From contig CACZHC010000008.1 of assembly GCA_902780865.1 (NCBI GenBank), positions 1 to 60,884 on the forward strand: a stretch of 60,884 nucleotides of DNA, given 5' to 3'. The stretch comes from an uncultured bacterium (GTDB taxonomy: Bacteria; Verrucomicrobiota; Kiritimatiellia; RFP12; UBA1067). The translations under genes and the position numbers were made by a program. A model generated the notes under the pieces. That model ran no database searches and had not been told where the DNA came from. It was given only the letters and a program-made list of their open reading frames with translations. This document shows positions 1,954-59,308 of the stretch, one piece after another (the first letter of the stretch is position 1; every line of letters starts with the position of its first letter).

Positions 1954-3411
1954 ATGAAAGCAAACATGAATCGTCGTGATTTCCTCAAGGGAACTGCCTG
2001 GATGGGCGCTGCGGCCATGGCCGCCGGCTGCCAGATGAACCGCTTCGGCTTCGGCCAGGGCGGACAGATGCAGGACTACGCATACCAGAAACTCAAGGGC
2101 AGAAACGTCCGCGTCGGCTTTATCGGCGTGGGGCAGCGCGGCACTGCTGCCGTCCATCGCGTTTCGATGATTCCCGGCGTCGAGATCGTCGCGCTCTGCG
2201 ACAAGAACCCTGCCGCGGTAGAGCGCAATCTCAAGTGGCTCGCCGACAGCAAGTACAAGATCGTTCCGAAGAAGTATGTCGGCGACGAGGCGTACAAGGA
2301 GCTCTGCGACTTCGGCGAGTGCGACGTCGTGTACTGCGCGACGCCCTGGGCGCTCCACCAGCCGGTCGCCTTGCGCGGACTTCTCGGCGGCAAGGTCGCT
2401 CTCGTCGAGGTCACGAGCGCGCTTACGGTCGACGAGTGCTGGGAGCTCGTCGAGGCCTCGGAGAAGTGGCAGATCCCCTGCATGCAGCTCGAAAACTGCG
2501 TGTACGGCGAGATCGAACTCCTCGAGCTCAACCTCGCGCGCCTCGGGATGTTCGGTCAGATCAACCACGTTGAGGGCGCGTACATCCACGACCTCCGCGA
2601 GATCATACCGTCGGTCAACAACAACATGAACCTCGAGTACCAGTGGCGCTACGACGAGAACATGGCCCACAAGGGCGACCGCTACCCGACGCACGGGCTC
2701 GTGCCGCTCTGCCAGACCCTCGGCGTCAACCGCGGCGACCGCCTCGACTACCTCGTCTCGCTTGGCAGCAACGACTACTCGGTGAACTACGAGTACTTCA
2801 AGAAGGAGTACCTGCCTGACTCCGATCCGCGCAAGAAGGACCCGCCCGCGGCGATGAACGACATGACGACGACGCTCTTCAAGACGGTGAACGGCGTCTC
2901 CATCATGCTGCAGCACGACGTCAGCTCGCCTCGCCCGTACAACCGCCGCGCGCTCATCTCCGGCACGAAGGGCATAATGGCGGACTATCCGTTCCGCTGC
3001 GCGTTCGAGGACAAGTGCTTCGACCGCAAGGCGCACAGCTGGTACTCCGCCGCTGATGCCGACAAGGTGCGCACGAAGTACATGCACCCGATGTGGCGCG
3101 ACGTCTCGGACATGGCGAAGAAGGTCGGCGGCCACGGCGGTATGGACTTCATCATGGACCTCCGCTGGGCGTGGTGCCTGCAGAACGGCGAGCCGCTCGA
3201 CATGGACGTATACGACCTCGCTGCGACGAGCTGTGTCTGCGAGCTTACCGAAACTTCCATCCGGAAGGGCTCGAAGCCGGTGTCGATCCCCGACTTCACC
3301 CGCGGCAACTGGAGGAACGTCAAGCCCTGGGGAGTCGTGAATGTCGACCTCAAGAAAATGGGCCTCGATTCCGGCGGAGTCAAGAAGGATGACGCGGCGC
3401 TAAGCGTCTGA
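1954..3411 (+). CDS. Gfo/Idh/MocA-family NAD-dependent oxidoreductase/glycosidase (GH109-like) with Tat signal
   Basis: Twin-arginine signal (NRRDFLKGTAWMGAAAMAAGC), Rossmann motif VRVGFIGVGQRG, and a size (485 aa) and layout typical of GH109-type enzymes. An alternative start lies at 1966. Confidence 0.75.
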   Translation: MKANMNRRDFLKGTAWMGAAAMAAGCQMNRFGFGQGGQMQDYAYQKLKGRNVRVGFIGVGQRGTAAVHRVSMIPGVEIVALCDKNPAAVERNLKWLADSKYKIVPKKYVGDEAYKELCDFGECDVVYCATPWALHQPVALRGLLGGKVALVEVTSALTVDECWELVEASEKWQIPCMQLENCVYGEIELLELNLARLGMFGQINHVEGAYIHDLREIIPSVNNNMNLEYQWRYDENMAHKGDRYPTHGLVPLCQTLGVNRGDRLDYLVSLGSNDYSVNYEYFKKEYLPDSDPRKKDPPAAMNDMTTTLFKTVNGVSIMLQHDVSSPRPYNRRALISGTKGIMADYPFRCAFEDKCFDRKAHSWYSAADADKVRTKYMHPMWRDVSDMAKKVGGHGGMDFIMDLRWAWCLQNGEPLDMDVYDLAATSCVCELTETSIRKGSKPVSIPDFTRGNWRNVKPWGVVNVDLKKMGLDSGGVKKDDAALSV

Positions 3412-3563: not shown

Positions 3564-5846
3564 ATGAGCGAAGAGGCGGAGAAGAATCTGATCGAAATGG
3601 CCGCGCGCATACGCGAAATGCGCGAGATCATCGGGTATTCTGTTGAGCAGATGGCGGAGAAGACCGAAGTCTCCGTCGAGGACTACAAGGCGGTCGAGGC
3701 GGGGAAGCTCGACCCGACATTCAACTTTCTCCACCAGTGCGCGATTACCTTTGGTGTCGACATCAACGCGCTTTTGAAGGGCCATAGCGCCCACCTTTCC
3801 GGCTACGAAGTGACGCGCGCGGGGCAGGGGCCTCTTACGGCGCACGAGACGCACATGGACATCCGCAACCAGGCAGCGATGTTTCAGAACCGTCTCGGCA
3901 CTCCCTACTGGGTCACCTATAAGTACGACCCCGCGCTCATGGACAAGCCCATCTCCACGACGACCCATGCGGGGCAGGAGTTCGACATTGTCCTCAAGGG
4001 CTCGATGAAGATTCGCGTCGGCGAGCATATTGAGGAGCTTCACGAGGGCGACTCGATCTACTACCGCTCGTCCACGCCGCACGGCATGCTCGCGACCGAC
4101 CCAAACGGCGTCACGTTCCTCGCGATGGTGATGGCGGGAGAAGGCGGCGACACGCACCTCGGCCTCGAGACTGTGCGTCCGCGCCACGAGAAGGTGCCGC
4201 TTGTCGTCGACAAGTTCGTCGAGTGCGAAGAGAACGCGTCGGGCCATCTTGAGCACGTCAAGTTCAAGAATACCGAGTGCTTCAACTTCGCGTTCGACAT
4301 AATCGACGAAATCGCCAACCGCTATCCCGAAAAGCTTGCGCTCCTGCACGTTAGTGACCATTTTACCGAGCGCCGATTCACTTTCCGCGAGATAAGCGAC
4401 ATCTCGAACCAGATGGCGAACTACTTTAGGTCGGTCGGCATCGGGAAGGGCGACAAGGTTCTCTTCATCCTGAAGCGCCACTGGCAGTACTGGCCGGCGG
4501 TTCTCGCGCTCCACAAGGTCGGCGCGATAGTGATTCCCGCAGTGAGCCAGCTCAAGGACCACGATCTCGTCTACCGCTTCAAGGCGGCCGATGTGAAGGC
4601 ACTCGTCTGCACCGCCGACGGCGATGTTGCGCACGAGGCCGAGCTCGCGGAGGCCGAGATCGCGAAGGAGAAGCCCGGATACTCCCTCATCAAGATGATC
4701 GTCAACGGCGACCGCGAGGGTTGGAAGAGCTTCGACCGCGAATACGTCGGCTTCTCGCGCGTCTTTGGACGCGGGCCAGACGCTCCAGGCGGCAAAGACC
4801 CGATGCTCATGTTCTTCACGTCTGGCACGACCGGCTACCCCAAGATGGCGCTCCACAGCCACCTCTACGGCCTCGGCCACTTCGTGACCGCGAAGTACTG
4901 GCACCAGGTCGAGCGCGACGGGCTGCACCTAACGATTTCCGAGACGGGCTGGGCCAAGGCGAGCTGGGGCAAGCTCTACGGCCAGTGGATGTGCGAAGGG
5001 GCTCTTTTCGTCTACGACTTCGCCCGCTTCCACGCCGAGCAGATTCTCCCGATGTTCGCGAAGTACGGAATTACGACTTTCTGCGCTCCGCCGACGATGT
5101 ACCGCATGCTTATTAAAGAGGACATCTCGAAGTACGACTTCTCGTCGGTGCATCACGCGACTACGGCGGGTGAGGCGCTGAACCCCGAGGTGTTCACGCA
5201 GTTCAAGCGCGCGACTGGTCTTTCGATCTACGAGGGCTTCGGCCAGACGGAGACGACTTGTGCGCTCGGCACGCTCTTCGGCGACGAGATCAAGCCGGGC
5301 GCGATGGGTAAGCCGATTCCAGACTACGGCATCGACCTCGTCGACCCCGAGGGGCACTCCGTTCCAGCCGGCGAACACGGCGAGATCGTCGTCAGGACTC
5401 CGCGCTCGAACCCTCACCCCGGTATCTTCGTCGGCTACTACAAAGACGAGGAGAAGACGGCCGAGGCGTGGCGCCACGGATGCTACCACACTGGCGACCT
5501 CGCGTGGAAGGACGAGGACGGATATTACCACTATGTTGGCCGTGCGGACGACGTAATCAAGTCGTCGGGCTACCGCATCGGGCCGTTTGAGATCGAGAAC
5601 GTAATCATGGAACTCCCCTACGTCGTCGAGTGCGGCGTATCTGCCGCGCCCGATCCCGTGCGCGGACAGGTCGTAAAGGCGACGATCAAGCTCGTGAAGG
5701 GCAAGGAGGGGACCGAGGAGCTCAAGAAGGAGATTCAGGAGTACGTGAAGACCCACACGGCTCCCTACAAGTATCCTCGCATCGTCGTCTTCCGCGACGA
5801 GCTTCCGAAGACCGTCTCTGGCAAGATCCAGCGCAACAAGCTGTAA
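3564..5846 (+). CDS. Fusion protein: XRE-type HTH plus cupin (PuuR-like) N-terminus and AMP-forming acyl-CoA synthetase C-terminus
   Basis: The N-terminal ~190 aa has an HTH_3-like segment (IREMREIIGYSVEQMAEKTEVSVEDYKAVEAG) and a cupin-like segment (HAGQEFDIVLKGSMKIRVGEHIEELHEGDSIYY). The rest carries AMP-binding core motifs: FFTSGTTGYPKMALHSH, EGFGQTETT, YHTGDLAWKDEDGYYHYVGRADDVIKSSGYRIGPFEIE and TVSGKIQRNKL. Confidence 0.8.
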   Translation: MSEEAEKNLIEMAARIREMREIIGYSVEQMAEKTEVSVEDYKAVEAGKLDPTFNFLHQCAITFGVDINALLKGHSAHLSGYEVTRAGQGPLTAHETHMDIRNQAAMFQNRLGTPYWVTYKYDPALMDKPISTTTHAGQEFDIVLKGSMKIRVGEHIEELHEGDSIYYRSSTPHGMLATDPNGVTFLAMVMAGEGGDTHLGLETVRPRHEKVPLVVDKFVECEENASGHLEHVKFKNTECFNFAFDIIDEIANRYPEKLALLHVSDHFTERRFTFREISDISNQMANYFRSVGIGKGDKVLFILKRHWQYWPAVLALHKVGAIVIPAVSQLKDHDLVYRFKAADVKALVCTADGDVAHEAELAEAEIAKEKPGYSLIKMIVNGDREGWKSFDREYVGFSRVFGRGPDAPGGKDPMLMFFTSGTTGYPKMALHSHLYGLGHFVTAKYWHQVERDGLHLTISETGWAKASWGKLYGQWMCEGALFVYDFARFHAEQILPMFAKYGITTFCAPPTMYRMLIKEDISKYDFSSVHHATTAGEALNPEVFTQFKRATGLSIYEGFGQTETTCALGTLFGDEIKPGAMGKPIPDYGIDLVDPEGHSVPAGEHGEIVVRTPRSNPHPGIFVGYYKDEEKTAEAWRHGCYHTGDLAWKDEDGYYHYVGRADDVIKSSGYRIGPFEIENVIMELPYVVECGVSAAPDPVRGQVVKATIKLVKGKEGTEELKKEIQEYVKTHTAPYKYPRIVVFRDELPKTVSGKIQRNKL

Positions 5847-7941: not shown

Positions 7942-8001
7942 CGTGTTTCATCGGCGCGTCGGAACTATTGCAAAAAAAATTAATTTTTTTCAAATACCCC
8001 C

Positions 8002-8031
8002 TTGACGCCTTCCCCCATATGGGGGTATAAT
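8002..8031 (+). promoter_or_regulatory. Near-consensus sigma70 promoter with a 14-bp perfect palindrome in the spacer
   Basis: TTGACG (8002-8007), an 18-nt spacer and TATAAT (8026-8031). The spacer contains CCCCCATATGGGGG (8012-8025), a perfect palindrome. A strong SD (AAGGAGG) precedes the ATG at 8062. Confidence 0.65.
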
Positions 8032-8061
8032 ATGTGCGAAAATCTTTTTAAGGAGGATTAG

Positions 8062-9096
8062 ATGAAAGCAAAGAAACTTATGGGGGTGATTGCGTGCGCG
8101 GGCGCGTGCGTGTCTCTTTCCGCTCTTGCTAACACTACTAATGGCTGGTTCGGCGTGTCGGTCAATGACACTGCGGTCAATGCTGGGTCTTGCTCGGTGA
8201 CGACAAACAGTGTCGCAGTCACTTCGACCGAAACTGCGGGCAAGATTGTGCTCGATAATGATATTGAGTCAGCGCTGACGATTGCTCCAGTCGCGGGAAC
8301 TGCCGCGCTGAGCGACGGTCTCGTTACCATAACTTCTACGGCCGTCCTCACGCCGAGCGATGCTTCTGAGCTGGGTGCTGTAACTGGCGGCGCTCAAGCG
8401 GGTTTCGCCGTGGCGGTTGACGGCAATGAAACCAACTTCTACGGCTATGCGTCGGCTGGCGGCGAGGGCGGCGCGCCTGACTGGATCCAGTTCACCACCG
8501 GGCCTGCCAATCCAGAGGAGGCTACGACGTTCACCATCGCCATCAACTACAGGGACAAGAAGGTCAGTTTCTATAACGGCACAACTCTTCTTGTTGATGA
8601 CGAGTCGCATTCGGAGTTCTCTATTTCCAACGAGTTCGCGAATCTGTCCAACGTTGCGGCATACGGCTCTGGCTCGATCAGCTCCGTCACGAGCCAGTAC
8701 GAAGTCGCGGTTGCGGCGTATGGAGACAATAAGTATGGTTCCGGTGCTGAAGCTGTCAAGGCGAAAGGCAGTGGCGCCGGTGAAATTAAGGATATCGCCT
8801 CGGATGGGTCTATCGCGGAAAATCCGCTGGCAGCAAATGGACTTTACGCGTGGGAGTGCGATGTTCTTGGTGTCGCGAAAGATGCCAAGGTTCCGTTCAA
8901 GCCTGCGGCGACGGTCAATGGGAGCATAACGCTTCAGATCGCCTCTGAAATCGAGGAGGGAATTGCCGCGACATTCAAGGTTTCGGGAGATAATGGCGAG
9001 ACGTGGAGTGAATCGTATCCATCAGGTGCCATTCAGATTCCTCAAGCGCAGGGGAAGTACCTGATCAAGCCCGATCAGATCACGGTCGCTCAGTAA
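8062..9096 (+). CDS. Secreted protein of unknown family (P1)
   Basis: Strong SD (AAGGAGG) and a signal peptide (MKAKKLMGVIACAGACVSLSALA). The protein is Thr/Ser/Ala/Gly-rich and beta-rich. I recognise no enzymatic motif. Confidence 0.75.
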   Translation: MKAKKLMGVIACAGACVSLSALANTTNGWFGVSVNDTAVNAGSCSVTTNSVAVTSTETAGKIVLDNDIESALTIAPVAGTAALSDGLVTITSTAVLTPSDASELGAVTGGAQAGFAVAVDGNETNFYGYASAGGEGGAPDWIQFTTGPANPEEATTFTIAINYRDKKVSFYNGTTLLVDDESHSEFSISNEFANLSNVAAYGSGSISSVTSQYEVAVAAYGDNKYGSGAEAVKAKGSGAGEIKDIASDGSIAENPLAANGLYAWECDVLGVAKDAKVPFKPAATVNGSITLQIASEIEEGIAATFKVSGDNGETWSESYPSGAIQIPQAQGKYLIKPDQITVAQ

Positions 9097-9118
9097 CCTC
9101 TTAACAAGGAAGCAGAAA

Positions 9119-9832
9119 ATGAAAAAGACAATTGCAGTTCTCTTCGCGATTGCGTCGGCGGTCGTGTTCGCCGGCATGAACGATGTGCTGGTCTCCTTTA
9201 ATTCTCTCTACACGCCAGACACTGATAAATATGCTGACGGCACCACTGTCCTTGACGGCGAGTGGTATGCGCTTGTTTGCATAAAGGACGGCAAGGCGGA
9301 TATTGTGGATGCCGCGTCTCTTGCCAAGGATGGCCGTTGCCCTCGTTACGTCTTTACGATTGATGAATCCAAGCTTGATGCATGTGCGGGGGGTGTGCTT
9401 GGGGTCTATCTCCTTGACACTCGCGATTTTTCCGCCGATCCTTCTGGTAAGAAGCGGACCGAGAACCTTGGTGAGAACGGATATCCGGTGTATAATGCGA
9501 TGGCGGCCACGAAGGGCGAAATGAAAAGGACTGGCAATTTTGCCTCTGCCACAGCAGGAACCTCGGTGTCGGCAGGTTCGTATGATCTTGCATCCGCGGG
9601 AGTTAAGTCACCCAAGGTGACAAGCATTGATGTCAGTGGCGACGAGGTTGTCGTGACGGTCAGTGATACGGTTCCTTTTGTTGGATACACGCTCGAGTCT
9701 GGAGACGGTGCGTTTAACTTCATGGTTCTTCCAGGCGCTGATACTTCTAACGGGAACGCTACAGGCGTGATTACGCTTAAGGCGCCCAAGAAGGATGGCG
9801 CACAGTTCTTCAAGGTTTCCTCTATCAAGTAA
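9119..9832 (+). CDS. Secreted protein of unknown family (P2)
   Basis: SD AAGGAAG and signal peptide MKKTIAVLFAIASAVVFAG. The C-terminal module ends ..GVITLKAPKKDGAQFFKVSSIK. The gene lies 22 nt after P1. Confidence 0.75.
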   Translation: MKKTIAVLFAIASAVVFAGMNDVLVSFNSLYTPDTDKYADGTTVLDGEWYALVCIKDGKADIVDAASLAKDGRCPRYVFTIDESKLDACAGGVLGVYLLDTRDFSADPSGKKRTENLGENGYPVYNAMAATKGEMKRTGNFASATAGTSVSAGSYDLASAGVKSPKVTSIDVSGDEVVVTVSDTVPFVGYTLESGDGAFNFMVLPGADTSNGNATGVITLKAPKKDGAQFFKVSSIK

Positions 9833-9849
9833 TTTTAGGAGTCGTCAAA

Positions 9850-10557
9850 ATGAAAAAACTTCTCTTGATTGCAGGCGTGGCAGTTGCCCTCGCAGCTTCG
9901 GCTGAGTATACCAGCCAGACGATAGGCGTCACAAAGATTACGACGACGAATCGCAACACGATTGTCGCTGTCCCGTTTGCGTCCCTTACAAATGGAACGG
10001 CGGCTATTTCTGCGAACGATCTTGTTTGCACAAATGGTTTGCCTATTGGGACGACGACGGCAACGACACAGCTTCTCGTGTTCAAGAATGATGGATATCT
10101 TACATGGGAGCTGGCTCCGGAGGGCTGGGTGCCTGTTCCAAATGGGTCTCATACGGCGGACTATGTCAGCGCGAACAGCACCATAGCAAGTGGCGGGGCG
10201 ATTTGGGTTGTCCTTCCGAGTGCGCCGAATCCTTCTCAGGACATTTATATCTATGGTGATTTCACCACAGAGCCGACTCAGTCGAGCATTGCGCCTGGTG
10301 TTGCCAATCTTATAGCAAACCCGTTGCAGTCTGATGCCACAGTTGCATTGTCGGGGACGCCTGCCAAGGGTGATGTAATCATCATCCCCACTGATGGCGC
10401 CGCTGAAAGCTACTCTTACGGCAGAGGCGGTTGGGTAAATAACGGTGTTTCCTTTGATCTTGCATCCATTACTGTCAAGGTTGGGCAGGGTTTCTGGTAT
10501 GTGAGCAAGTCCACTACCGGTGTTACTAAGGTTACTTGGAGTGCCAAGTCCAACTAA
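9850..10557 (+). CDS. Secreted protein of unknown family (P3)
   Basis: SD TAGGAG and signal peptide MKKLLLIAGVAVALAASA. The gene lies 17 nt after P2. The C-terminus reads ..ITVKVGQGFWYVSKSTTGVTKVTWSAKSN. Confidence 0.75.
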   Translation: MKKLLLIAGVAVALAASAEYTSQTIGVTKITTTNRNTIVAVPFASLTNGTAAISANDLVCTNGLPIGTTTATTQLLVFKNDGYLTWELAPEGWVPVPNGSHTADYVSANSTIASGGAIWVVLPSAPNPSQDIYIYGDFTTEPTQSSIAPGVANLIANPLQSDATVALSGTPAKGDVIIIPTDGAAESYSYGRGGWVNNGVSFDLASITVKVGQGFWYVSKSTTGVTKVTWSAKSN

Positions 10558-10592
10558 GTGTAATGCTATATCTTAAAAGAAAGAGAATGCTT

Positions 10593-11105
10593 ATGAAAAA
10601 ATCAATTGTAGCGGCACTTGTGTTTTCGGTGGCTCTTGCTGCCTCTGCCGATGTCCTCTACTGGATGGTAGGCGATAGCATTGCAAACACGGCAACGCAG
10701 AGCGATTCAAGCAGTTTCGCAGCGCTTTATGTGTCTGGCGGTGGCGTGGATCCAGATCCAACGGCGTTAATGACCGTTACTGGAGGACAAGTTTACAATA
10801 TGTATGACCCGGACGGCGGAACGGTTGCATTTTCGTATTCTGGGATAGATGCTTTTAGTTCGGGAGATTATAAATTCTACGTTGAGATCTTGGCAGATGG
10901 TGACTATAAAGGCAGTCAGACCTCCAAGATGTCATACACTGATCTCGCGCCATATATTTATGCTGGCACGGGTCAGCCAACGAGCACAATGCTGGCTGGT
11001 TTTGGTGGCGCAAATACCTCCTACAACGTTCCGGAACCGACGAGCGGGTTGCTGTTCCTCATTGGCGGGATGCTGCTCGGTCTGAAGCGCCGTCGCCAGG
11101 CTTGA
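10593..11105 (+). CDS. PEP-CTERM sorting-domain protein (P4)
   Basis: Signal peptide MKKSIVAALVFSVALAASA (start at 10593, or at 10587 adding ML). The C-terminus VPEPTSGLLFLIGGMLLGLKRRRQA has the PEP motif, a TM helix and a basic tail typical of exosortase substrates. The upstream part of the tracked ORF (10536) overlaps P3 and is unlikely to be translated. Confidence 0.8.
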   Translation: MKKSIVAALVFSVALAASADVLYWMVGDSIANTATQSDSSSFAALYVSGGGVDPDPTALMTVTGGQVYNMYDPDGGTVAFSYSGIDAFSSGDYKFYVEILADGDYKGSQTSKMSYTDLAPYIYAGTGQPTSTMLAGFGGANTSYNVPEPTSGLLFLIGGMLLGLKRRRQA

Positions 11106-11129
11106 GCATAGTCTGCTGACGCAATGCGA

Positions 11130-11168
11130 AGTGCAAGAAGCCGACAAGGTTTCTTGCACTTTTCATTT
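11130..11168 (+). terminator. Intrinsic terminator ending the P1-P4 operon
   Basis: A 10-bp perfect stem, AGTGCAAGAA (11130-11139) paired with TTCTTGCACT (11151-11160), is followed by TTTCATTT. Confidence 0.75.
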
Positions 11169-11216
11169 CCCCATCTGCCTTCTTCGGTGTAGTCGTGACC
11201 CCTACTTCGGTGGGGG

Positions 11217-11246
11217 TTGCTGGAAGATGAAGGCGTTTGGTATAAT
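11217..11246 (+). promoter_or_regulatory. Promoter of the giant glycine-rich gene (extended -10)
   Basis: TTGCTG (11217-11222), an 18-nt spacer and TGGTATAAT (11238-11246). SD AAAGGA precedes the ATG at 11274. A UUCG-tetraloop hairpin, CCCCTAC-TTCG-GTGGGGG (11199-11216), abuts the -35 element. Confidence 0.55.
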
Positions 11247-11273
11247 GCAACAAGACAGCGAAAGGATCCTGCG

Positions 11274-14200
11274 ATGAAAGTCACAACCCCGTATCGCCTT
11301 TTGATGCTCGTGTTTGCATTTGCGTTGCTTTGCGTCGGTTCCGCCCAGGCGTCATTCCTAGTCGATCTCGCGACGAATGCGAACAAGGTCGCCTCGTCGC
11401 CCTACGCGACTGGCGGCGATGTAATCCTGCACCTGCAGGGCGTCGGCTATGACGACTACGTCCATGTCTTCACGAACACGGCGTCCGCCGGTGCCTTCAC
11501 TCCGTCTCAGGCTCTGACCGCCCGCCTCCTTCTCGTTGCAGGAGGAGGTGGCGGCGGAAACAAGTCCAACAAGCCGGGCGGCGGCGGTGCGGGCGGCATG
11601 ATTGAAGTGGCGCGTGAGGCGCTGTCTGCCGATACGGTCTATGCGGTCACGGTCGGATCCGGTAGTGTGGGCACGTCGCAGAACAAAGGCACGACGGCCG
11701 GGGATTCATCGTTCGTGGGCGGGTCGGTTTCGTACGTGGCCGTAGGCGGCGGACGAGGCTCGGATTATGCCACGGCCGGATTCATGTCCGGCGGCAGCGG
11801 CGGCGGCGCGGGATCGAACAACAGCCCGTGGTCTGGCGGCTCCGGAACGCCAGGCCAGGGACATGACGGCGGTTCCGTCGCGCAGTTCTCATCGGGCAAC
11901 GGCGGTGCCGGCGGCGGAGGCGGCGCGGGTGCGCCGGGCGGGGCGCTGTGTTCGTATGTCGGCTCGTCGCCTCTCGGTCTTCATGCCGGAATCGGCGGCG
12001 ACGGCCTGCCGTCCGATATCCTCGGCTTCTCGCAGTATTTTGCGGGCGGCGGCGGTGGCTATGCGAACTTGTCGTCGGCTAATGGTTATGTTCGCGCACC
12101 TGGTGGACTCGGCGGCGGCGGCAGCGGCGGCATTGGCGGCGATCCCGTCGGAGAAGACGGCGAAGACGGACTCGGCGGCGGTGGTGGTGGCGGACTCGGG
12201 GACTACCCCACCGGTCGGGGCGGCAGCGGCATCGTCGCTGTTCGCTATCTGGTCTGGACATCTAACGCGCCGCTCCTGCGGCCTTCGTCGGCCGTCACGG
12301 AGGGCGGGACGTTCGTGGCCGTGACCGGCGCGGTTGGCGCATTTGGCGCAGGCGAATCGTCCGCCTTGGTGAAGATGCGCTACTGGAAGACCTCCACGCC
12401 AGCCGATACGACGACCATCGACTTGGTCGAAATCGTCGGCGAGGGCAATCTCGATGTCGCATTCAGCAAGACAGTCGGCGGCTTCGACGCCAAGACCGAA
12501 TACGGCTATGCCATCTACGCGGCAGGCGCGAACGGCGCTTCGGCCGAGCAGACCGGAACGTTCACGACTTTCGCCGCGACGCTCGGTGGATCGGGTGGAG
12601 CAATCCTGACCAATGGCTTCTACCGTATCCATGTCTTTGACGACCCCCGTGCGCCCGCGACCTTCACGACTGTTGATGACGGCTATGTTGACATCCTCGT
12701 GGTCGGCGGCGGCGGCGCGGGCGGCTATGGCGCCGCATCCGGCGGTGGCGGCGGTGGCGGCGTCGTCTACTCGAACCATGTCTATCTCGCGGCCGGTGCC
12801 TACGCCGTTACGGTAGGCACAAACGGGACGATGCTTTCGGGCGGGACGAGCGCCAAACATCCCGGCGGCAACTCGTCATTCGCCGACATCATCGCCTATG
12901 GCGGCGGATGCGGCGTCGGCTGGGACGACAACAAGGCCACTGGATCAAGCGGCGGTTCTGGCGGCGGCGGCTCGCGCAATGTAAACGGAAGCCAAGCGGG
13001 TTGCGTCTACGGCCAGGGGCATCAGGGAGGCAATGTCCTGGGCTATCCCAACTACAAGGCTGGCGGCGGCGGCGGCGCAGGGGGCCGTGGCGCCGATGGC
13101 TCAACAGAAGGTCCAGGCGCGGGCGGACCTGGATATGCATGCTCCATCACTGGCGAGACGGTCGTCTACGGTTCGGGCGGAGGCGGCGGCGCAAGAATCG
13201 CCACCGACGCGATGGCACCGGGCGGGGAGAACGGCGGCCATGGCGCCTGCTGGACCATCGCCGCGACTTCGGGCGTTGACGGTACGGGCGGCGGCGGCGG
13301 AGGTGGCTGCGGCGTTTTCAAGCAGAGCGGAAATGGCGGTTGCGGCACCGTCATAGTCCGCTACATCGACTGCACGCTCTTGGGCGACGATCCGGCCATC
13401 GCGGTCGAAGTCGCGGAAACGACACCTGTCTCCGCCGTTGTCGAGGTCTCGGTTCCCCATGCGGGGGCGTCTGCGACCGTCACGCTTTCGGTCGCGGTCT
13501 CCTACGAGGAGGGAGGCGCGGCGATCGCCGCGCTTTCGCGGACGGTTCCGGACTTCATCGGCCCGCTGACGATTCCCCTCGCCGGGCTTTCGCCGGGACG
13601 CACCTACTTCGTGGCCGCGACGGCGGACAACGGAACGAAGACGGCGACCGCAACGACTTCGTTCACCACGGATCCGATGTTCACCAAGGCGCTTTCCCTC
13701 TCAACGGCTGGCGGCGTCCTCTCCTACACCATGGACGGCGCTTCGGACGGGACGCAGACTCTCGAGCTGTGGGTTGGGCCTGACGAGGCGTTGATGACGA
13801 ATCTCGCGACGTATGCGGATGCGTCCCTTATGACGGCAGGATCACATACGATCACGCCGTTCACGGTAGATTTTCTCGACGAGACGATGGCCATCATGCT
13901 CCGCCATGTCGCCGTGGCGAAGGGTCATTCGTTCACGAACGACTCGGCCGTGCTGACCGCGACGCTCCGGGACGGCGCCACCTACACGTGGAATAGCGAA
14001 GTCTCCGAGGGCGACTGGTGCGACGCCGCGAACTGGATCGCCTCCGACGGCATGCGCGGCTGGCCGGCGGCAGGATCGACGGCGAAGTTCCCGGCCATGA
14101 CTGCGACTGCACGCGTCGACCGCGCCGTTTCGTTTTCGACAGCGAAATTCACTTCCGGAGGCGCGTGGTCTTTTGCAGGAACGACGTCCAGTGCCTCGCT

Positions 14201-14969
14201 CTCATTCGCCGGATCGGGCGACGCGGCGCTTGACGATGGATCCTATGTCTTCGACGCGCTCGCGGTGCACGTCTCGGCCGGACAGAACGGCTGGCTCGGC
14301 AACAATCAGAGGATTGTCCTCGAAAACGGCGCGGAACTCGTCTCCTCGAAGAACCTCTGCCTGCGTGCGTCGGGCGGTTCGCTCCTCGTCGGCGCGGGCT
14401 GCTCCTTCTCGGGGACGGGCCTTGGCGGCAGCAAGGGCGCGTCGCTTGTCGTGAGCAACGGCACGGCGACCGTCTCGGGCGCGGTCAATCTCTCCGAACG
14501 CGGGAGCGCGACGGACCTCCCCGCGTCGCTTTCGATCTGCGGCGCCGACGCCCGCATTTTCTGTAGCGGCTTCTACTCGCAGTACACCAATGCGACCGTG
14601 ACGATCAAGCTGGAAGGGACGTATTCTCAGGCGGAGGCGCTTATCCGCGAGACGGGGACGACCGCGATGGCGGCGTCGGGCGGCACTCTGACTTTCGATG
14701 TTCCGAGGACGCGCGCTTCGAAGAGCGTTGCAAAATGCGACATCCTCGTCGCGGACTGGTCGAAGAAGAGCATCAACACGGCGCTTGTCGCCTTTGGCGA
14801 ACATGAAGAAGACGACTACTCATACTTCTTCTTCACGGAATCGGCCGACCTCTCGTCGGCGACACGGCGCTACACAAGCGCGGAGGAGGTCGCCGACGCA
14901 GGCGCGACCGTGAAGTGTCTCTGGTACCACCACAAAGGTCCAGGAGGTTTCCATCTGTCTGTCAGATGA
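11274..14969 (+). CDS. Large secreted protein with two tandem glycine-rich domains and a beta-helix-like C-terminal region
   Basis: Signal peptide MKVTTPYRLLMLVFAFALLCVGSAQA. Domain 1 (about 11440-12255) runs from YVHVFTNTASAGAFTP..ARLLLVAGGGGGG to ..GSGIVAVRYLV. Domain 2 (about 12610-13375) runs from FYRIHVFDDPRAPATFTT..VDILVVGGGGAGG to ..GCGTVIVRYIDC. The C-terminal ~530 aa is Ala/Ser/Gly/Thr-rich with passenger-like strands (ASLVVSNGTATVSGAVNL). The 19 codons from 11217 overlap the promoter and are unlikely to be translated. Confidence 0.85.
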   Translation: MKVTTPYRLLMLVFAFALLCVGSAQASFLVDLATNANKVASSPYATGGDVILHLQGVGYDDYVHVFTNTASAGAFTPSQALTARLLLVAGGGGGGNKSNKPGGGGAGGMIEVAREALSADTVYAVTVGSGSVGTSQNKGTTAGDSSFVGGSVSYVAVGGGRGSDYATAGFMSGGSGGGAGSNNSPWSGGSGTPGQGHDGGSVAQFSSGNGGAGGGGGAGAPGGALCSYVGSSPLGLHAGIGGDGLPSDILGFSQYFAGGGGGYANLSSANGYVRAPGGLGGGGSGGIGGDPVGEDGEDGLGGGGGGGLGDYPTGRGGSGIVAVRYLVWTSNAPLLRPSSAVTEGGTFVAVTGAVGAFGAGESSALVKMRYWKTSTPADTTTIDLVEIVGEGNLDVAFSKTVGGFDAKTEYGYAIYAAGANGASAEQTGTFTTFAATLGGSGGAILTNGFYRIHVFDDPRAPATFTTVDDGYVDILVVGGGGAGGYGAASGGGGGGGVVYSNHVYLAAGAYAVTVGTNGTMLSGGTSAKHPGGNSSFADIIAYGGGCGVGWDDNKATGSSGGSGGGGSRNVNGSQAGCVYGQGHQGGNVLGYPNYKAGGGGGAGGRGADGSTEGPGAGGPGYACSITGETVVYGSGGGGGARIATDAMAPGGENGGHGACWTIAATSGVDGTGGGGGGGCGVFKQSGNGGCGTVIVRYIDCTLLGDDPAIAVEVAETTPVSAVVEVSVPHAGASATVTLSVAVSYEEGGAAIAALSRTVPDFIGPLTIPLAGLSPGRTYFVAATADNGTKTATATTSFTTDPMFTKALSLSTAGGVLSYTMDGASDGTQTLELWVGPDEALMTNLATYADASLMTAGSHTITPFTVDFLDETMAIMLRHVAVAKGHSFTNDSAVLTATLRDGATYTWNSEVSEGDWCDAANWIASDGMRGWPAAGSTAKFPAMTATARVDRAVSFSTAKFTSGGAWSFAGTTSSASLSFAGSGDAALDDGSYVFDALAVHVSAGQNGWLGNNQRIVLENGAELVSSKNLCLRASGGSLLVGAGCSFSGTGLGGSKGASLVVSNGTATVSGAVNLSERGSATDLPASLSICGADARIFCSGFYSQYTNATVTIKLEGTYSQAEALIRETGTTAMAASGGTLTFDVPRTRASKSVAKCDILVADWSKKSINTALVAFGEHEEDDYSYFFFTESADLSSATRRYTSAEEVADAGATVKCLWYHHKGPGGFHLSVR

Positions 14970-15036
14970 AAAGGGGCGTTATTGACGAGATTGACCAAAT
15001 ATGGGATAATACTCTGCAAAGGTAAGATTGACATCT

Positions 15037-17346
15037 ATGGACAACAAATCTTTTGCGGGTGATCGCCTGAGAAAGCGGGACTTTGGCCTCGCGCTGATTT
15101 CTGGCATTGCCTTTTTCTTTGTCTATTTCATTTTCGCCCCTCGCGGGCTCGATCCGTCGCTTTGGGACGAAATGACTGTTGCCGCTGGCATGAGGCCGCC
15201 GCAGACTGTTTTTGCTGGTGTCTGGCGGCTTTTTACGGCATGGATGCTTTCGCTTTTTGGGCATGCGTACATCGTTCAGGCGCTGAGGCTCGTCGGCGCA
15301 GTCGTCGGTGGAATTTCGGCTGTCTGTGTGTACTTGGTATTGCGGCAGATACTTGCCTGCCTCTCTCGGGTCAAGAGCTTCGAGCGTTGGGAATGGATTG
15401 CCCCGCTGTTCACGACGATTGCGACGGTGTGCTTCTGCGCCGGCGACGCGATGTTCCGCATAACGGCCCCGGTCGCCCCTGGCGCGTTCCGATTCCTCGC
15501 GCTCATACTGTCTCTTCATCTATTCCTTCGGTTTTTGAAGAATGGCGGGCTTTTGCGCATTCTTCTTTCGATGGCCTTTGCCGGCATGCTCGCGGCGGAG
15601 ACTCTGGTGGGATTTATCCTCCCCGCCGTCTACTATGTCGCGCATCGGCTCGCGCTCGCCGAGGCGCTGAACGAGAAGCAGCAGGTCGACTCCGATCCCG
15701 GGCATCTTGCCTTTATGCCGCGCTGGAGGATGTTCTTCTCGTTCGTGTTCGGCCTTGTCCTGCTTGTCGGGGTGAACATTGCGACCTTCGTGTCGTTCGG
15801 CGGGCTTGAGGCGAACGGCTGGAGCGGCTTTGACGTCGCTTTTCACTATGTCGTGAGATACTACGGTTTTCTTGTGTCTGCGGCCTCTCCGATCGGCTGG
15901 TTGCTTGCCATAACATTCTCTCTCCTTCCCTTGGTGGTGACGCTTGTCCTTTTCCCGATGCTTTGCCGCGATACCGAGCCCCTGCGATTCAGGCTCGGGC
16001 TGATTGTCCTTTTCGCAGGCGTGCTCGCGCTTGTCCAGTGCGGCATACTCCCATATACGCGTCTATGGTCTTTCTCCTCCGGTGCCGTCGAGATAAACTC
16101 CGACTTCCTCGAATGCGTATTCATGCTGATGACGGCTGTCACGCTCGCGCTTGCCGCCTCGTGCTTCACGCTTGGCTGCCAGGAGATATTCTTCTTCGAC
16201 GAGGACGACGGCTCGTTCAAGGTCGCAGAGCCGCGTGGCCCGGTTATGCGCAATCTTGTCCAGGCGATTGTCATTGTATGCGTTCTGCCGACTGTGTTCC
16301 GCGTATACCGTCCCGTCGAGACGGAGCTGAGGTCCATCGTCCATGACGCGATTGTCGAGACCGTGCGCGAGTGCGGCGACGCCAAGTTCGTATTTACAGA
16401 CGGACGGCTCGATTCCGGTATCGAGCTGATCGCCTCCATGATGGGCTCGCAGGTGAAGCCGCTGAACATGATGAGCGGGCCTTCGCCATGGGAGAAGTAC
16501 ATTCGCACGAGGAACTTCGAGGAGGGCTCGCCCGACCACGCCTCCGCCGAAGTAGGCGTTCCCGTCCTTCTGCGAGTCTGGGCCGGCGAGATGACGAACG
16601 GCATGGACAATGCCGCGGTCCAGCTCGGCTTCGAGTTCTGGAAAAGGGCGAGGAAGCCGCTCCCGAGGAGCTCCGGCTTCGTTGCGCGCGAGAAGGGCCT
16701 TTCCGACGCCGAGGTCGAGCGCGGCATATCTGCCGCGAATGCCATAGCCGCGAGGATCATCAGGATCGCAAAGGAGAATCCCCACATGGCCGTCTCGCCT
16801 GCTTTGCGAAGCGCCGTCTCGTCGGTCTCCTGGCGCATCTCTCGTTTCGCCCGCATGAGAGACGACGAGCAGCTAGCGAACGAGCTTGACGAGTGGAACG
16901 ACGCCGTCAAGCACCTGATGCGGCTCATCGACTACGAGCGCATGCGCACGTTCATGCAGATGACGCCCTACGAGGGACTTCGGCTCTCCCTCCGGCGCGC
17001 AGACTTCGTCGAGGCACGCAAGTACGGCGCGACTGTCCTGCAGATCGACCCGGAGGATCCCGAGGCGAACTTCGGCACAGGCATGGCGTTTCTCATGGAG
17101 GAGAAGTACAAGGAGGCCGAGTTCTATCTCGCGCGCACTCTCGTGAAGCGCCCCGACGAACCGGCGGTCCTCAACAACCTCTCGATAATCTTCCGAAAGA
17201 CGAACCGCCTCGAAAAGGCGCTTGAGTACGTCAAGAAGGCGCATGAGCTCGCTCCCGAGAACGAGGAGATAGCTCGCACCTTGAAGGACACCGAGCGTGC
17301 CATAACGAAGCGCAACGAGACGCTCAAGTCGGCGTTTTCGAGGTAG
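15037..17346 (+). CDS. Polytopic membrane protein with C-terminal TPR repeats (possibly a DUF2723/PMT-like glycosyltransferase)
   Basis: About 10 predicted TM helices in the N-terminal 400 aa. The C-terminus has TPR-like repeats (EANFGTGMAFLMEEKYKEAEFYLARTLVKRPDEPAVLNNLSIIFRKTNRLEKALEYVKKAHELAPEN). The start could be TTG at 15028 or ATG at 15037. A TGGGATAAT -10 element lies at 15002-15010. Confidence 0.65.
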   Translation: MDNKSFAGDRLRKRDFGLALISGIAFFFVYFIFAPRGLDPSLWDEMTVAAGMRPPQTVFAGVWRLFTAWMLSLFGHAYIVQALRLVGAVVGGISAVCVYLVLRQILACLSRVKSFERWEWIAPLFTTIATVCFCAGDAMFRITAPVAPGAFRFLALILSLHLFLRFLKNGGLLRILLSMAFAGMLAAETLVGFILPAVYYVAHRLALAEALNEKQQVDSDPGHLAFMPRWRMFFSFVFGLVLLVGVNIATFVSFGGLEANGWSGFDVAFHYVVRYYGFLVSAASPIGWLLAITFSLLPLVVTLVLFPMLCRDTEPLRFRLGLIVLFAGVLALVQCGILPYTRLWSFSSGAVEINSDFLECVFMLMTAVTLALAASCFTLGCQEIFFFDEDDGSFKVAEPRGPVMRNLVQAIVIVCVLPTVFRVYRPVETELRSIVHDAIVETVRECGDAKFVFTDGRLDSGIELIASMMGSQVKPLNMMSGPSPWEKYIRTRNFEEGSPDHASAEVGVPVLLRVWAGEMTNGMDNAAVQLGFEFWKRARKPLPRSSGFVAREKGLSDAEVERGISAANAIAARIIRIAKENPHMAVSPALRSAVSSVSWRISRFARMRDDEQLANELDEWNDAVKHLMRLIDYERMRTFMQMTPYEGLRLSLRRADFVEARKYGATVLQIDPEDPEANFGTGMAFLMEEKYKEAEFYLARTLVKRPDEPAVLNNLSIIFRKTNRLEKALEYVKKAHELAPENEEIARTLKDTERAITKRNETLKSAFSR

Positions 17347-17367: not shown

Positions 17368-20300
17368 ATGAAGAGATTGCGCTTTGTTTTGCCTGTCGCC
17401 GTGCTGGTGTCGGCATTTGCATGGAAGGGGCTTTCGGCCGAGACCGTACGTGTCGTCGACTGCGTTCGGGATGCGTCGCTCGACGTCTGGGCCGCGCCCG
17501 ACGTGCGATACGCGCACGAGGTTATGGAGGAGGTCTTCAAGACCGCCGGCCTCGAACCGTCGTGGGGTGTCCCTGGAAATGACGCCTCGCTTCCAGACGA
17601 CGAGGCTGACGTGATTTGCTCCGCCTTCAGAACGCCCGAGCTCCTCGAGAAGTACGACTTCCCGCTCCAGCCGATGAGCCGCATGCACTTCGCGCTCTAC
17701 GCCGCGCCGGAGCGCGCCAAGGAAATGCTTTCCACGAAGATAACCGATTGGCCTAATATGCGTGTCGGGTATTCGCCTGTTTCTCAGGGTCATAATGACG
17801 ACAGGATCAAGTACTTCGAGCACGTGAGGCTCTCGCCGGAATACGTGGAGTTCCCGCGCAGCGCCGACGCGGTGCGGGCGCTCCACAAGGGCAACGTGGA
17901 CGTGCTCTTTCTCTACACGCCCTACAGCCGTCGTCCGAAGGACGTCGTGGAGGTCGTCCCGATTGGCGCGCGAAACGCGTACTTTGCCGTCAAGAAGGGA
18001 AAGCCCGAACTCCTCGCCAAGCTTACCAAGGCGTACCGCGACTTCTACATCGACCGCATCGACAGGGTGGACGAGCTGCGTGAGCGGCATTTCGGCATGC
18101 AGAAGCCCGCGAACCGCGTCCGCATCGCGGCATACAGCCGCGGCGACATCTTCAGCGTATCGCCGGACGGCGATCATTCTGGCGACCTGGAGACCTGGCT
18201 CAAGGCCATCTGCTCGACAGCGCAGTGGGAGCTCGACTATGTCTACGGCGGATACGAGGAGAGCATCGCGGACGTCAAGAAAGGGCGTCTCGACATCATC
18301 GGCGGGCTCAGTTTCGACGTTACGCGGCGCGGGAGCTTCCTCTATCCGCACACGCCCATCGGCATGCTTCGCGTCTATCTCTGGACGCACAAGAGCCTTC
18401 CGTACGAGCCGGGCAACCCGCAGACATGGCGGGGGATGAAGGTCGGTCTCTTGACGGGAACAGTGAGCTCCCAGCGCGTGAAGCGGAATCTCGAGTCGGA
18501 GTCGATTGGGGTGACCTTCAGGGAATACTCGTCGGACCGCGAGATGCTGCGCGCCTACTTTGATGGCGAAATCGACGCATGCGTCGACGTCGAGATGCCC
18601 GAGCTCGCGCACGAGACGGCCCTGCACCTTTGCATCGCGCATCCAATGTACATCTGTGCGGCTTTGGACAGGACGGAGATATTCGCGGCCCTTGAAAATG
18701 CGCTTGACGAGTTGTGCGACGACTTGCCCAAGTACATGCGGATGATCCGCGACCACCACTACGGCTCGCGGAGCGAGGTGGCGACGCTCACGCTCAAGGA
18801 GTCGGAGTGGCTCAACGCCAGGGTCAAGACGGGGGAGCCGGTGTATGTCGACTTCTCCCCGTGGCCATTCAGCATAAGGGACAAGTCTGGGCGCGCGCTG
18901 GGCCTCGCGCTTCTCCTCCAGTCCGAGGTCAAGCGCCGCACGGGGCTTGAGATACGCCCGCAGGTGCAGACCGGCATCTACACCGCGCAGGCGAAGTTCA
19001 TGCGCGGGGAGACGATGTTCTGGATTCCCTATCCGGAGAAGGCCGGAGACGCCGCGTTCGAGGCGAAGTCGGTGTTCTCCATTCCGGTTCCGACGATGGT
19101 CGCGGAATTTTACGGTGCGGAGGACGACATGCTCGAATTCGAGATGCTCGCGAATCCGTCCGCTCCGCCCGAACTCGTCTCGATCCTGAGGAAGACGGTA
19201 ACGAGCATTGACGCCGTGCGCCTCCAGGAGATGTTCATGAGCGCGGCGGCGGAGCGCAAGGTCGTGCACAAGGTGTTCGGACTCACCGGCGACCAGTTGC
19301 TCAAGGTAATCGTCGCCGTGGTGCTTCTCGTGCTGCTTGCGATCGTGATCTACAGCGCGTACATGGTGAGGCTCCTCAAGCGCGAGGCGGTGAAGGCCAA
19401 CACCGCGGCAGCCGCAGCCGAGGAGCACGCCAAGGCGAAGACTCGCTTCCTCGCGATGATGTCGCACGAGCTCCGGACGCCCCTCAACGCCGTCATTGGT
19501 TTTGCCGAGTTCCTCACTCGCAAGGACGTCGACAGCGACAGGCGCCAGGAGTACACGGACGGCATACTCATGAGCGCGAACGCGCTTCTCGACCTCATCA
19601 ACGACATCCTCGACCTCTCCAAGCTCGAGGCCGGCGCGACTGACATGCGCGCAGGCGAGTGCGACATCAAGAAGCTTCTCGACGAACTCCCCGCCATATT
19701 CGGCTACCGCATCAGGCGGCACGGGGTCAAGCTCCTGGTCTCGATAGAGGGCGACAGGATTCCCGTGGTCGGGCTTTCGCAGCAGGGCATGCGCCAGATA
19801 CTGATCAACCTCGTCGGCAACGCGGCGAAGTTCACAAAGTCGGGGTCGATAACGGTCAAGGCCGCGTGGCGCTCCGAGACGAATGCGCTGCACATCGAGG
19901 TTGCGGACACGGGATGCGGCATGTCGGACGAGAAGATGGCGAAGCTGTTCGACCCCTTCGTGCAGGACATCGCGAGCCGCATGGAAAGGACCGCGAACGA
20001 CGCGAAGGGCACCGGGCTCGGGCTTCCGATCGTGAAGCGCATGGTGGACAACGCGCGCGGCACCGTGACGGCAAGGAGCTGTCTCGGGAAGGGAACCGTG
20101 TTCTGCATCGACATACCGGAGCTCGAGGTGGTGAGGCACTCAGAGACCCTCTCCAAGCCGGCGGAGCCCGTGCTTCCCGCCTTGCCCGCAAGAGTGCTTG
20201 TGGTGGATGACATGGAGACCAACCGCAGGATACTCAGGATACACCTGAAGAACCTCGATGTTGCCGAGGTGCGCACGGCCGAGAACGGCGAGGACGCGCT

Positions 20301-21587: not shown

Positions 21588-21708
21588 CGTTGCTTATCTG
21601 ATGTTAAAAATATAATACCACATTCCCCATTCGAGCGCAAGAGGTACGCTGGCACGACTTTCGCTGCGCGGTTGACCGGCGGTGAAGTGTATGGTAAAAT
21701 TTTTTTCC

Positions 21709-46744: not shown

Positions 46745-46753
46745 TATTCGGCA

Positions 46754-59213: not shown

Positions 59214-59288
59214 TCGGGCGTGGCGCAGTGGTAGCGCAGTTGACTGTTAATCAATTGGTCGCTGGTTCGAATCCAGCCGCCCGAGCCA
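59214..59288 (+). tRNA. tRNA-Asn (GTT)
   Basis: The cloverleaf folds cleanly. Acceptor TCGGGCG/CGCCCGA, D stem GCGC/GCGC, anticodon arm GTTGA-CTGTTAA-TCAAT, T arm GCTGG-TTCGAAT-CCAGC, discriminator G and an encoded CCA. Confidence 0.9.
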
Positions 59289-59308
59289 AGTTTATGGTTC
59301 CCCATGAT

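Follow-up and report, generated by a model that had tools for sequence, protein, structure and literature searches.

Bacterial surface systems organized around a C-terminal sorting signal, and hypervariable, antigen-like gene cassettes, are of a general kind already known. In the PEP-CTERM/exosortase system (EpsH/XrtA; Haft et al. 2006, PMC1569441), proteins combine a signal peptide with a C-terminal PEP motif, transmembrane (TM) helix, and arginine cluster, and a surface destination, perhaps with glycosylation, is assumed for such proteins (Akkermansia, PMC4960237). In the ScaE cohesin/XDoc system of Ruminococcus flavefaciens (PMC5301203), a small envelope-fixed protein with an LPXTG/sortase-type C-terminal signal is encoded beside large proteins that dock by a C-terminal module, and the S-layer cassette of Clostridioides difficile (PMC7677006; glycosylated SLCT-11, PMC6254364) is a multi-gene surface cassette with conserved flanks and many divergent, recombining alleles. 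Here we describe a locus of four genes (P1 to P4; positions 8002-11168) in a 60,884-nucleotide stretch of contig CACZHC010000008.1 from an uncultured member of the Kiritimatiellia, the whole of which is referred to as the window. On balance, we favour the view that the locus represents one allelic form of a hypervariable operon under a strong promoter, building a Kiritimatiellia-specific cell-surface protein assembly in which a recurrent module probably fastens adhesin-like proteins to the outside of the cell. To our knowledge, nothing is known about the cell surface of the Kiritimatiellia, which are common in rumen and gut and almost unstudied. A search of the open literature returned no paper linking Kiritimatiellota with PEP-CTERM, and no curated family, solved structure, or paper for P1, P2, P3, the downstream membrane protein gene described below (MT), or their neighbourhood.

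The four genes lie consecutively on the forward strand: P1 at 8062-9096 (344 aa), P2 at 9119-9832 (237 aa), P3 at 9850-10557 (235 aa), and P4 at 10593-11105 (170 aa), with intergenic gaps of 22, 17, and 35 nt, as proposed in an earlier note made from the letters of this DNA. Genes called independently on other assemblies encode identical sets of products (344/237/235/170 aa) and thereby support the ATG at 10593 as the start of P4. The Shine-Dalgarno (SD) sequences AAGGAGG, AAGGAAG, and TAGGAG claimed for the first three genes were found upstream of them, and on inspection of the sequences all four products begin with a signal peptide (lysine-rich n-region, hydrophobic core, and A-x-A-type site). 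The mature proteins are acidic (pI 4.05-4.65), low in cysteine, and rich in serine and threonine (17-23% together), with 0-5 arginines each.

Transcription signals frame the operon closely, and the claim that it forms a discrete transcription unit of signal-peptide proteins, the PEP-CTERM protein last, is supported. The sigma-70-type promoter at 8002-8031 (TTGACG at 8002-8007, an 18-nt spacer, and TATAAT at 8026-8031, all on the forward strand) matches 11 of 12 consensus positions; its hexamers are invariant or nearly so across 10 aligned cassette alleles, all of which also possess an A/T-rich tract upstream of the -35 (7972-7996 in the window) that may be an UP element. Inside the spacer lies a palindrome, CCCCC-ATAT-GGGGG (CCCCCATATGGGGG, 8012-8025), whose arms are invariant in these alleles and whose 4-nt centre varies; it occurs once in the window against an expectation of 0 by chance. 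In a pattern search the composite promoter motif was found once per locus, upstream of P1, in each of the 17 loci listed, all of them canonical cassettes, and in none of the other loci fetched. Given its conserved arms and exclusive placement upstream of P1, the palindrome is a candidate repressor operator, for which no regulator was identified. The intrinsic terminator (11128-11169, forward strand) consists of a 15-bp stem with a 5-nt loop (hairpin 11128-11162; dG -29.9 kcal/mol, z -5.45) with a T-run after it; overlooked by a pattern scanner and detected by folding, it is also present in loci L006, L014, and L015 (related loci are designated by L numbers). The conserved near-consensus promoter, strong SD sequences, and strong terminator favour our reading, under which the products would be highly expressed and abundant. 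By Rfam scan, neither the cassette nor its surroundings match an RNA family, and a GC-rich 'hairpin' at 8091-8112 was rejected as a regulatory RNA, being rich in G-U pairs and having its 3' arm deleted in L011 and L012.

A clue to the nature of the system comes from P3 and from the company it keeps elsewhere. P3 comprises a signal peptide and two tandem cupin/jelly-roll-like beta domains, which we propose to be a docking module. It has no Pfam, NCBIfam, or PDB sequence match; the two domains are seen in the AlphaFold2 model (pLDDT 86, pTM 0.81), with which an internal sequence repeat in a Pontiella homologue agrees. Foldseek searches returned nothing significant from the PDB (best E 0.012, TM-score 0.22) or BFVD (best E 0.0035), and only single cupin domains align to the model (90-95 residues, E 0.15-0.3), which falls short of a cupin or double jelly-roll assignment. 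Outside the signal peptides, hhalign detected no homology of P3 with P1 or with P2, and by sequence no relationship among P1, P2, and P3 could be detected. A word-seeded search yielded 140 homologues of P3, none of them named, and an exhaustive profile search yielded 1,466 representatives at 50% identity clustering (E<=1e-3), mostly of 225-270 aa. In addition to these short forms, the module forms the end (~220 residues) of adhesin-like proteins 500-2,400 aa long and was C-terminal in every large protein found (residues 1890-2112 of 2112, 686-897 of 897, and 823-1047 of 1047, and likewise in some 20 further carriers of 515-2414 aa). The N-terminal parts of the carriers match Flg_new (Listeria-Bacteroides repeats), BspA-type LRR_5, Fn3_assoc, CHB_HEX_C_1, and DUF2341, a predicted content typical of adhesins and other surface proteins.

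Related DNA was found in Kiritimatiellia metagenome-assembled genomes (MAGs) from gut and rumen, which older records label Verrucomicrobia or Lentisphaerae, and distant P3-P4 pairs occur in marine Pontiella MAGs, a scan for cultured Pontiella with this pair having yielded MAGs only. Surveying 46 loci with hidden Markov models (HMMs) of P1-P3 and a P4 profile revealed the following architectures: (i) P1-P2-P3-P4, the type of the window, (ii) P2-P3-P4, in several loci, (iii) a large protein ending in the P3 module, followed by P4 and P2, also in several loci, (iv) a tandem duplication of the latter in L017, and (v) an 851-aa protein with a P1-like N-terminal and a P3 C-terminal domain in L030 and L042. 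The gene orders are cyclic permutations of one another (P2-P3-P4, P3-P4-P2, and the tandem (P3-P4-P2)x2 of L017), and several paralogous systems can co-occur in one genome. Conservation of gene order, on which the earlier note had made its proposal depend, was found for the four-gene form in close relatives and also at ~45% P1 identity between the same flanking genes. One locus, L046 (5726-12569), is labelled 'uncultured Akkermansia sp.' and contains a P1-like gene, P2, P3, P4, and then MT; its GC content of 0.65 exceeds that of Akkermansia muciniphila (about 0.56), so its bin assignment may be wrong.

This arrangement resembles the ScaE system in that a small, putatively envelope-fixed protein is encoded beside large proteins sharing one type of C-terminal module across several different passengers, although docking here is suggested by the genes. 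It differs in that the sorting signal of the presumed anchor is PEP-CTERM rather than LPXTG/sortase, the host is a diderm bacterium of the PVC (Planctomycetes-Verrucomicrobia-Chlamydiae) group, and the passengers carry adhesin-like repeats instead of enzymes. No sequence or fold relationship of the cassette proteins to cohesin or dockerin was detected.

P4, the presumed anchor, consists of a signal peptide (by inspection, cleaved between MKKSIVAALVFSVALAASA and DV), an acidic domain of ~127 aa with an N-terminal LYWMV motif, and a PEP-CTERM tail, VPEPTSGLLFLIGGMLLGLKRRRQA (11028-11102, forward strand), in which a PEP motif, a hydrophobic helix, and a basic cluster follow one another. The signal, already recognized in the earlier note, scores 28.7 bits against TIGR02595 (cut-off 16) and a borderline 18.7 bits against Pfam PF07589, slightly below the cut-off of 20.7. 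The pattern LyWmv...ysF.vEl...vPEPtSGlL...RRR is common among 72 distinct family members, with a PEP tail in 71 and a PTP tail in 1. P4 thus shares with described PEP-CTERM proteins the signal peptide, PEP motif, TM helix, and arginine cluster. The locus departs from the described systems in three respects: only one of the four proteins bears the signal, the partners P2, P3 module, and MT lie outside any described Xrt system, and neither an exosortase nor an exopolysaccharide (EPS) locus adjoins the cassette, the glycosyltransferase cluster of the window being 30 kb away at 40.9-50.9 kb. Neither S-layer nor anchoring domains (SLH, CWB2, and similar) were matched in P1-P4 in Pfam or NCBIfam. 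Nor does the operon qualify as a pilus system of the chaperone-usher, type IV, type V, or sortase type: only P4 bears a sorting signal, Pfam and NCBIfam gave no usher/chaperone or lipoprotein-pilin domain, and no prepilin motif (G-F-x-x-x-E, cleaved between G and F) was found in the sequences.

The conserved partner of the cassette is MT, further downstream (15037-17346, forward strand; a 772-aa ORF at 15028-17346 with its ATG at 15037), which encodes a polytopic membrane protein with tetratricopeptide repeats (TPRs). Its promoter at 14982-15010 (TTGACG, 17 nt, GATAAT, forward strand) is kept in L006, L014, and L015, where it lies ~12 nt past the cassette terminator. MT is made up of ~10-11 TM segments (residues ~15-425; 10 and 11 are both compatible with hydropathy), a conserved soluble domain with FTDGxxD, and C-terminal TPRs, the last being its only Pfam matches. 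It lies directly 3' of the cassette in at least 16 independent loci, irrespective of gene order. In the reverse test, with MT as bait, 80 loci were retrieved containing 66 MT genes with sufficient upstream sequence; P4 or P4-P2 was directly upstream in 45 of these 66 (P4 in 40, P4-P2 in 5), and where P4 abuts MT it is itself directly preceded by a P3-module gene in 37 of 40 loci. The gaps between P4 and MT range from -62 to +237 nt by ORF-caller starts, with many overlaps of a few nt. MT forms a multi-copy family, many copies having their own P3-P4 pair upstream, and a homologue is present even in L046, the most divergent locus (hhalign probability 95.9%, E 6e-9).

What MT does can be suggested in outline at best. 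Protein O-mannosyltransferases of the GT-C fold with TPRs (TMTC, TMEM260-like) have a multi-TM N-terminal half followed by TPRs, a gross layout that MT shares. However, three MT homologues reach only 15.8-16.5 bits against PF11028 (TMEM260-like; cut-off 24.2, E 0.005-0.012), the MT of the window has no PF11028 match, and similarity to an LA_3751-type putative glycosyltransferase of Leptospira was sub-threshold and seen in 1 of 15 members (E 2.5e-4). In an alignment of 15 sequences, LDPSxWxE is common in the first loop region, where no acidic residue is invariant, and across the TM part as a whole no Cys, His, Ser, or acidic position is invariant; profile searches of the TM half and the soluble domain gave no meaningful PDB-sequence match. 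With matches that are all sub-threshold, assignment to the GT-C/TMEM260-like enzymes was not adopted and is kept as a lead. MT was also rejected as an exosortase, which it does not resemble: no exosortase HMM matches it, and Cys and His are nowhere invariant in its TM part. A match to TIGR02917 (PrsT; 53 bits against a cut-off of 312) is confined to the TPRs. Among the pilin allele groups of Pseudomonas aeruginosa, a variable subunit gene at a fixed locus is linked to accessory genes such as tfpO, each allele being paired with a dedicated polytopic membrane protein gene just downstream whose product modifies the subunit. The likeness to the present locus lies in the variable, putative surface-protein gene at a fixed site followed by a polytopic membrane gene; unlike the pilins, P4 has no prepilin leader, and by HMM MT is not a Wzy_C/O-oligosaccharyltransferase protein.

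These observations bear on a different explanation, namely that the genes encode a new sorting or secretion pathway in which P3 is a C-terminal export or sorting domain, comparable to the C-terminal domains of the type IX secretion system, that is recognized by MT, with P4 as co-substrate or adaptor and MT as a sorting or modifying enzyme of a new class, each copy matched to a single cargo of its own. We consider this unlikely, though it is the best of the alternatives. It would account for the strictly C-terminal position of P3 on many unrelated passengers, for the close and often overlapping arrangement of P4 and MT, for the many MT copies with a P3-P4 pair of their own, and for the sub-threshold similarity of MT to membrane glycosyltransferases (TMEM260-like, LA_3751-type). 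It fits less well with the size of the module, ~220 aa being large for a sorting signal, or with the existence of P3 as a free, passenger-less protein, as in the window; moreover, no curated family threshold was reached, the TM part of MT lacks an invariant residue suggestive of catalysis, and MT in the window and its orthologues has its own promoter downstream of a strong terminator.

Our reading also draws on the extreme divergence of the operon between otherwise similar genomes. In the window, L006, and L014, the protein encoded by the upstream HGD-D gene is 99% identical (dS ~0.42), and P1-P4 are mutually only 38-56% identical. A nucleotide identity of ~91% extends from the flank across the promoter and ~100 nt into P1 (to window positions 8151-8163) and then collapses, returning in patches at the P1/P2 junction and P2 N-terminus, the P2 C-terminus and P3 N-terminus, and the PEP-CTERM stretch and terminator (11014-11168), before recovering from the MT promoter onward (14977). 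The PEP-CTERM stretch is one of few DNA segments that stay similar between alleles. Exchange within the cassette is evident in mosaics: L014 and L013 share 46% identity in P1, 95% in P2, 81% in P3, and 78% in P4, and the comparison of the window with L002 has a breakpoint within P3 at 10419. Between the window and L001, P2 has a dS of 0.012 versus 0.44 in the flank, which indicates recent allele transfer. Most P1-P4 comparisons give dN/dS of 0.2-0.4, versus 0.02-0.03 in the flanks. In the window, L001, L006, and L014 alike, the cassette sits between the HGD-D gene and MT, and neither flanking repeats nor mobility genes were found around the cassette. A mobile element was therefore rejected in favour of an exchangeable allelic cassette at a fixed locus, there being no flanking repeats and no relatives in viral contigs (for P2, none in IMG/VR). 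By these sequence comparisons, the cassette is a hypervariable allelic locus with mosaic exchange inside, and by analogy it would behave like O-antigen, pilin, or S-layer cassettes.

The analogy is closest with the recombining C. difficile cassette cited above, from which the present locus differs in its unrelated proteins and in the envelope of its host, Gram-positive in C. difficile; an S-layer is proven there, and the cassette here is known from genes. Switching of alleles between conserved flanks, an acidic, Arg- and Cys-poor, Ser/Thr-rich composition, a strong promoter and terminator, and the inclusion of lattice or shell formers (STIV capsid protein, PyShell) among the weak, non-significant Foldseek neighbours of P3 could together point to an S-layer or sheath, in which P1-P3 would self-assemble into a two-dimensional lattice held by P4 and vary under antigenic or phage-receptor selection. 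That explanation also seems to us unlikely and somewhat harder to sustain: no known S-layer domain was matched, a module that ends single giant adhesin-like proteins fits docking better than a lattice, and several paralogous systems may be present per genome. In the titles and abstracts of open papers that mention S-layers together with this phylum, nothing relevant is apparent, these being concerned with other organisms or topics.

For P1, a fold can be named. It has a signal peptide, a ConA/galectin-like jelly roll at residues ~25-215, and a small C-terminal beta domain, and neither Pfam, NCBIfam, nor the PDB (including a profile search against PDB sequences) gave a sequence match. In the AlphaFold2 model (pLDDT 85, pTM 0.78), the N-terminal domain is a jelly-roll beta-sandwich superimposable on known members of the ConA-like lectin/glucanase fold; Foldseek aligned it with the receptor-binding (Hc) domains of botulinum and tetanus neurotoxins (E 1.7e-4 to 1e-3, probability 0.97-1.0) and P1 with galectin carbohydrate-recognition domains (E ~1e-3 to 3e-3, target TM-score 0.52-0.60 over ~140-164 residues). 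The statement that these proteins belong to no recognizable family therefore stands for P1-P3 at the sequence level and needs amending for P1, whose fold is recognizable; no confident family homology of P1-P3 emerged, structural searches with P1 and P3 giving a fold-level likeness for P1 only. Being a likeness of predicted folds, it allows sugar binding to be predicted at most. The word-seeded search found at least 274 P1 homologues, none named, and P1 is fused to the P3 module in L030, L042, L058, and L059. Within the P1 signal peptide (8062-8130, residues 1-23), Cys12 is invariant in 88 homologues despite synonymous changes nearby, and Cys16 is nearly so. P1 was nonetheless rejected as a lipoprotein, since the residues before Cys12 do not fit a lipobox in some alleles (for example FAVC in L016) and the hydrophobic core runs on to the AxA site.

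The fold of P1, of ConA/galectin/Hc type and thus potentially carbohydrate-binding, raises the question of substrate capture, in which P1 and its partners would bind dietary or host glycans in the manner of the accessory surface glycan-binding proteins of Bacteroidota. A gut or rumen host, CHB_HEX_C_1 and DUF2341/LamG-like modules in some P3-module carriers, and a GH109-like enzyme 5 kb upstream agree with this, yet we judge it improbable, as no glycoside hydrolase, transporter, or regulator is conserved beside the cassette, the flanking genes are housekeeping-like and unrelated, and divergence among strains that are otherwise near-identical is seen more typically under antigenic or phage pressure than in substrate binding.

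P2 is composed of a signal peptide, a conserved N-terminus, a variable middle, and a conserved, beta-rich C-terminal segment of ~75 aa ending in GAQFFKV. No match was found in Pfam, NCBIfam, or the PDB, the last also by profile search against PDB sequences, and none of its 423 homologues from the word-seeded search is named. Of the four proteins it has the highest between-allele identity (49-56% against the allele of the window), and it is found in most related loci, in either gene order. In two different MAGs (L033, 6326-7708; L034, 6323-7708), P4 and P2 lie within one ORF, the PEP-CTERM helix and RRRR cluster leading directly into the P2 signal peptide, an order that is consistent in topology. 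In one metagenome sample (L127, 4058-4779), P2 of a cassette allele identical to that of the window is split into calls of 57 and 175 aa, through a frameshift or an assembly error.

The cassette is also set apart by its base composition. The lower GC content proposed by the earlier note was recovered, at 0.50-0.55 over 8-11 kb versus 0.56-0.66 elsewhere in the window, although its spot estimate of 35-55% was somewhat low; third-position GC (GC3) is 0.50-0.61 versus 0.75-0.89 in neighbouring genes. The scarcity of long antisense ORFs was likewise reproduced (none of >=200 aa between 7731 and 11889, the longest being 140 aa), and the segment is compositionally distinct from the window background in both GC and GC3. 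Nearly all canonical-allele genes have low GC3 (0.40-0.67; the exception is P2 of L011, at 0.78), and low GC3 is absent from loci of other architectures, such as L027, L040, and L046. High-expression codon bias was rejected as its cause because the shift towards A or T at third positions is general, including GAT, AAT, and TAT, and because GC3 is normal in the glycolytic GAPDH gene of a related genome; the low GC amounts to this general shift within an exchangeable allelic cassette. Although the lower GC and codon shift might suggest a foreign island or phage remnant that arrived recently and plays no integrated part in the cell, this is very improbable and largely refuted by the constant chromosomal position in the window, L001, L006, and L014, the promoter kept in all 17 canonical loci, the stability of low GC3 across canonical alleles, and the absence of flanking repeats, mobility genes, and relatives in viral contigs.

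An undescribed cell-surface system, as the earlier note had it, is still the best reading of the operon and has been strengthened by the modular architectures elsewhere; as to the surface location itself, the PEP-CTERM signal of P4, the acidic, Arg-poor, Ser/Thr-rich composition, and the adhesin-type repeats of the P3 carriers favour it. We envisage that all four products would be exported via Sec and that the tail of P4, a small acidic protein, would be processed by an exosortase encoded elsewhere to give a cell-bound anchor. Onto this anchor the double beta-barrel module P3 would dock, as a free-standing protein in the operon of the window and as the C-terminal end of the 500-2,400-aa adhesin-like proteins at paralogous or orthologous loci. 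P1, with its lectin-type fold, would form a distal head, on a separate chain here and fused to P3 elsewhere, and P2 would act as a conserved accessory subunit. MT may mature or assemble the P4-P3 pair, possibly by glycosylation, towards which the evidence points weakly. The exposed parts would diversify by allelic replacement, with recombination through the conserved ends (promoter and P1 signal peptide; PEP-CTERM and terminator) and the conserved inner junctions.

Several points weigh against this scheme. Docking of P3 on P4 is a suggestion from gene adjacency and domain architecture, the lectin-like fold of P1 is a generic one, and P1-P4, once exported by Sec, would still have to cross the outer membrane. 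No exosortase was present among the multi-TM ORFs scanned within the 60,884-nt window, as the earlier note had remarked. The Pontiella loci have the P3-P4 pair only, so that P1, P2, and MT are not universal; 21 of the 66 MT genes stand alone, and MT is missing beside the cassettes of L010, L011, L018, L021, L026, and L033-36. A more ambitious version, which we offer tentatively and regard as rather doubtful, holds that the P3 module, P4, and MT are an unrecognized, Kiritimatiellota-specific anchoring or sorting machine: MT would be a membrane enzyme of a new class, either a glycosyltransferase or a sorting factor, that serves only the PEP-CTERM protein encoded next to it, P3 a new docking or sorting domain on dozens of giant adhesins per genome, and the operon of the window the minimal, hypervariable, highly expressed form.

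The locus defines four families (P1, P2, P3, and, its TPRs aside, MT) with no Pfam, NCBIfam, or PDB sequence family, and contains a recurrent module that seems to fasten adhesin-like proteins of very large size to the cell. It also places a PEP-CTERM protein in a concrete setting that can be tested; the biology of this sorting signal has so far been poorly characterized. Allelic divergence among near-identical strains makes it probable that selection by phages, predators, or the host immune system acts on the locus, which is usable as a strain-typing marker.

Between the cassette and MT, the window contains a giant gene (ORF 11217-14969, ATG 11274) for a secreted, glycine-rich protein of 1,231 aa with Pfam Gly_rich_2 in two stretches, whose co-occurrence with the cassette the earlier note had proposed to test. 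The gene belongs to a 3.8-kb strain-specific insertion (11169-14980) that is restricted to the lineage of the window, is found also in other samples with an identical P1 allele, and does not occur in L002, L006, L014, L015, or L016, where the MT promoter or gene begins ~12-80 nt past the terminator. Since giants distantly similar to it lie 3' of P2-like genes in L022 and L031, it may be loosely linked to the cassette, yet it is not a conserved partner.

Elsewhere in the window, a TAT-signal GH109-like oxidoreductase is encoded at 1954-3411, followed by an AMP-binding enzyme fused, unusually, to HTH and cupin domains (3564-5846); in L001 and L014 this fusion gene keeps its synteny with the HGD-D/BcrAD gene that precedes the cassette. 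Downstream of MT are two hybrid histidine kinases, paralogues of each other, whose sensor domains are of the SBP_bac_3 type (17368-20538 and 21682-24876) and, beside them, minus-strand ORFs at 20553-21587, 24873-25937, and 25934-26938, the first two of which have eukaryote-type Ser/Thr kinase domains. The glycosyltransferase cluster (40917-50915) also comprises AMP-binding and hexapeptide-transferase genes and includes the only other low-GC3 gene of the window (45416-46744; 0.64), a multi-TM gene with no Pfam match that may encode an O-antigen/EPS polymerase. Finally, tRNA-Asn, a tmRNA (tag ANNDYALAA), and a TPP riboswitch occur in succession at 59214-59807.

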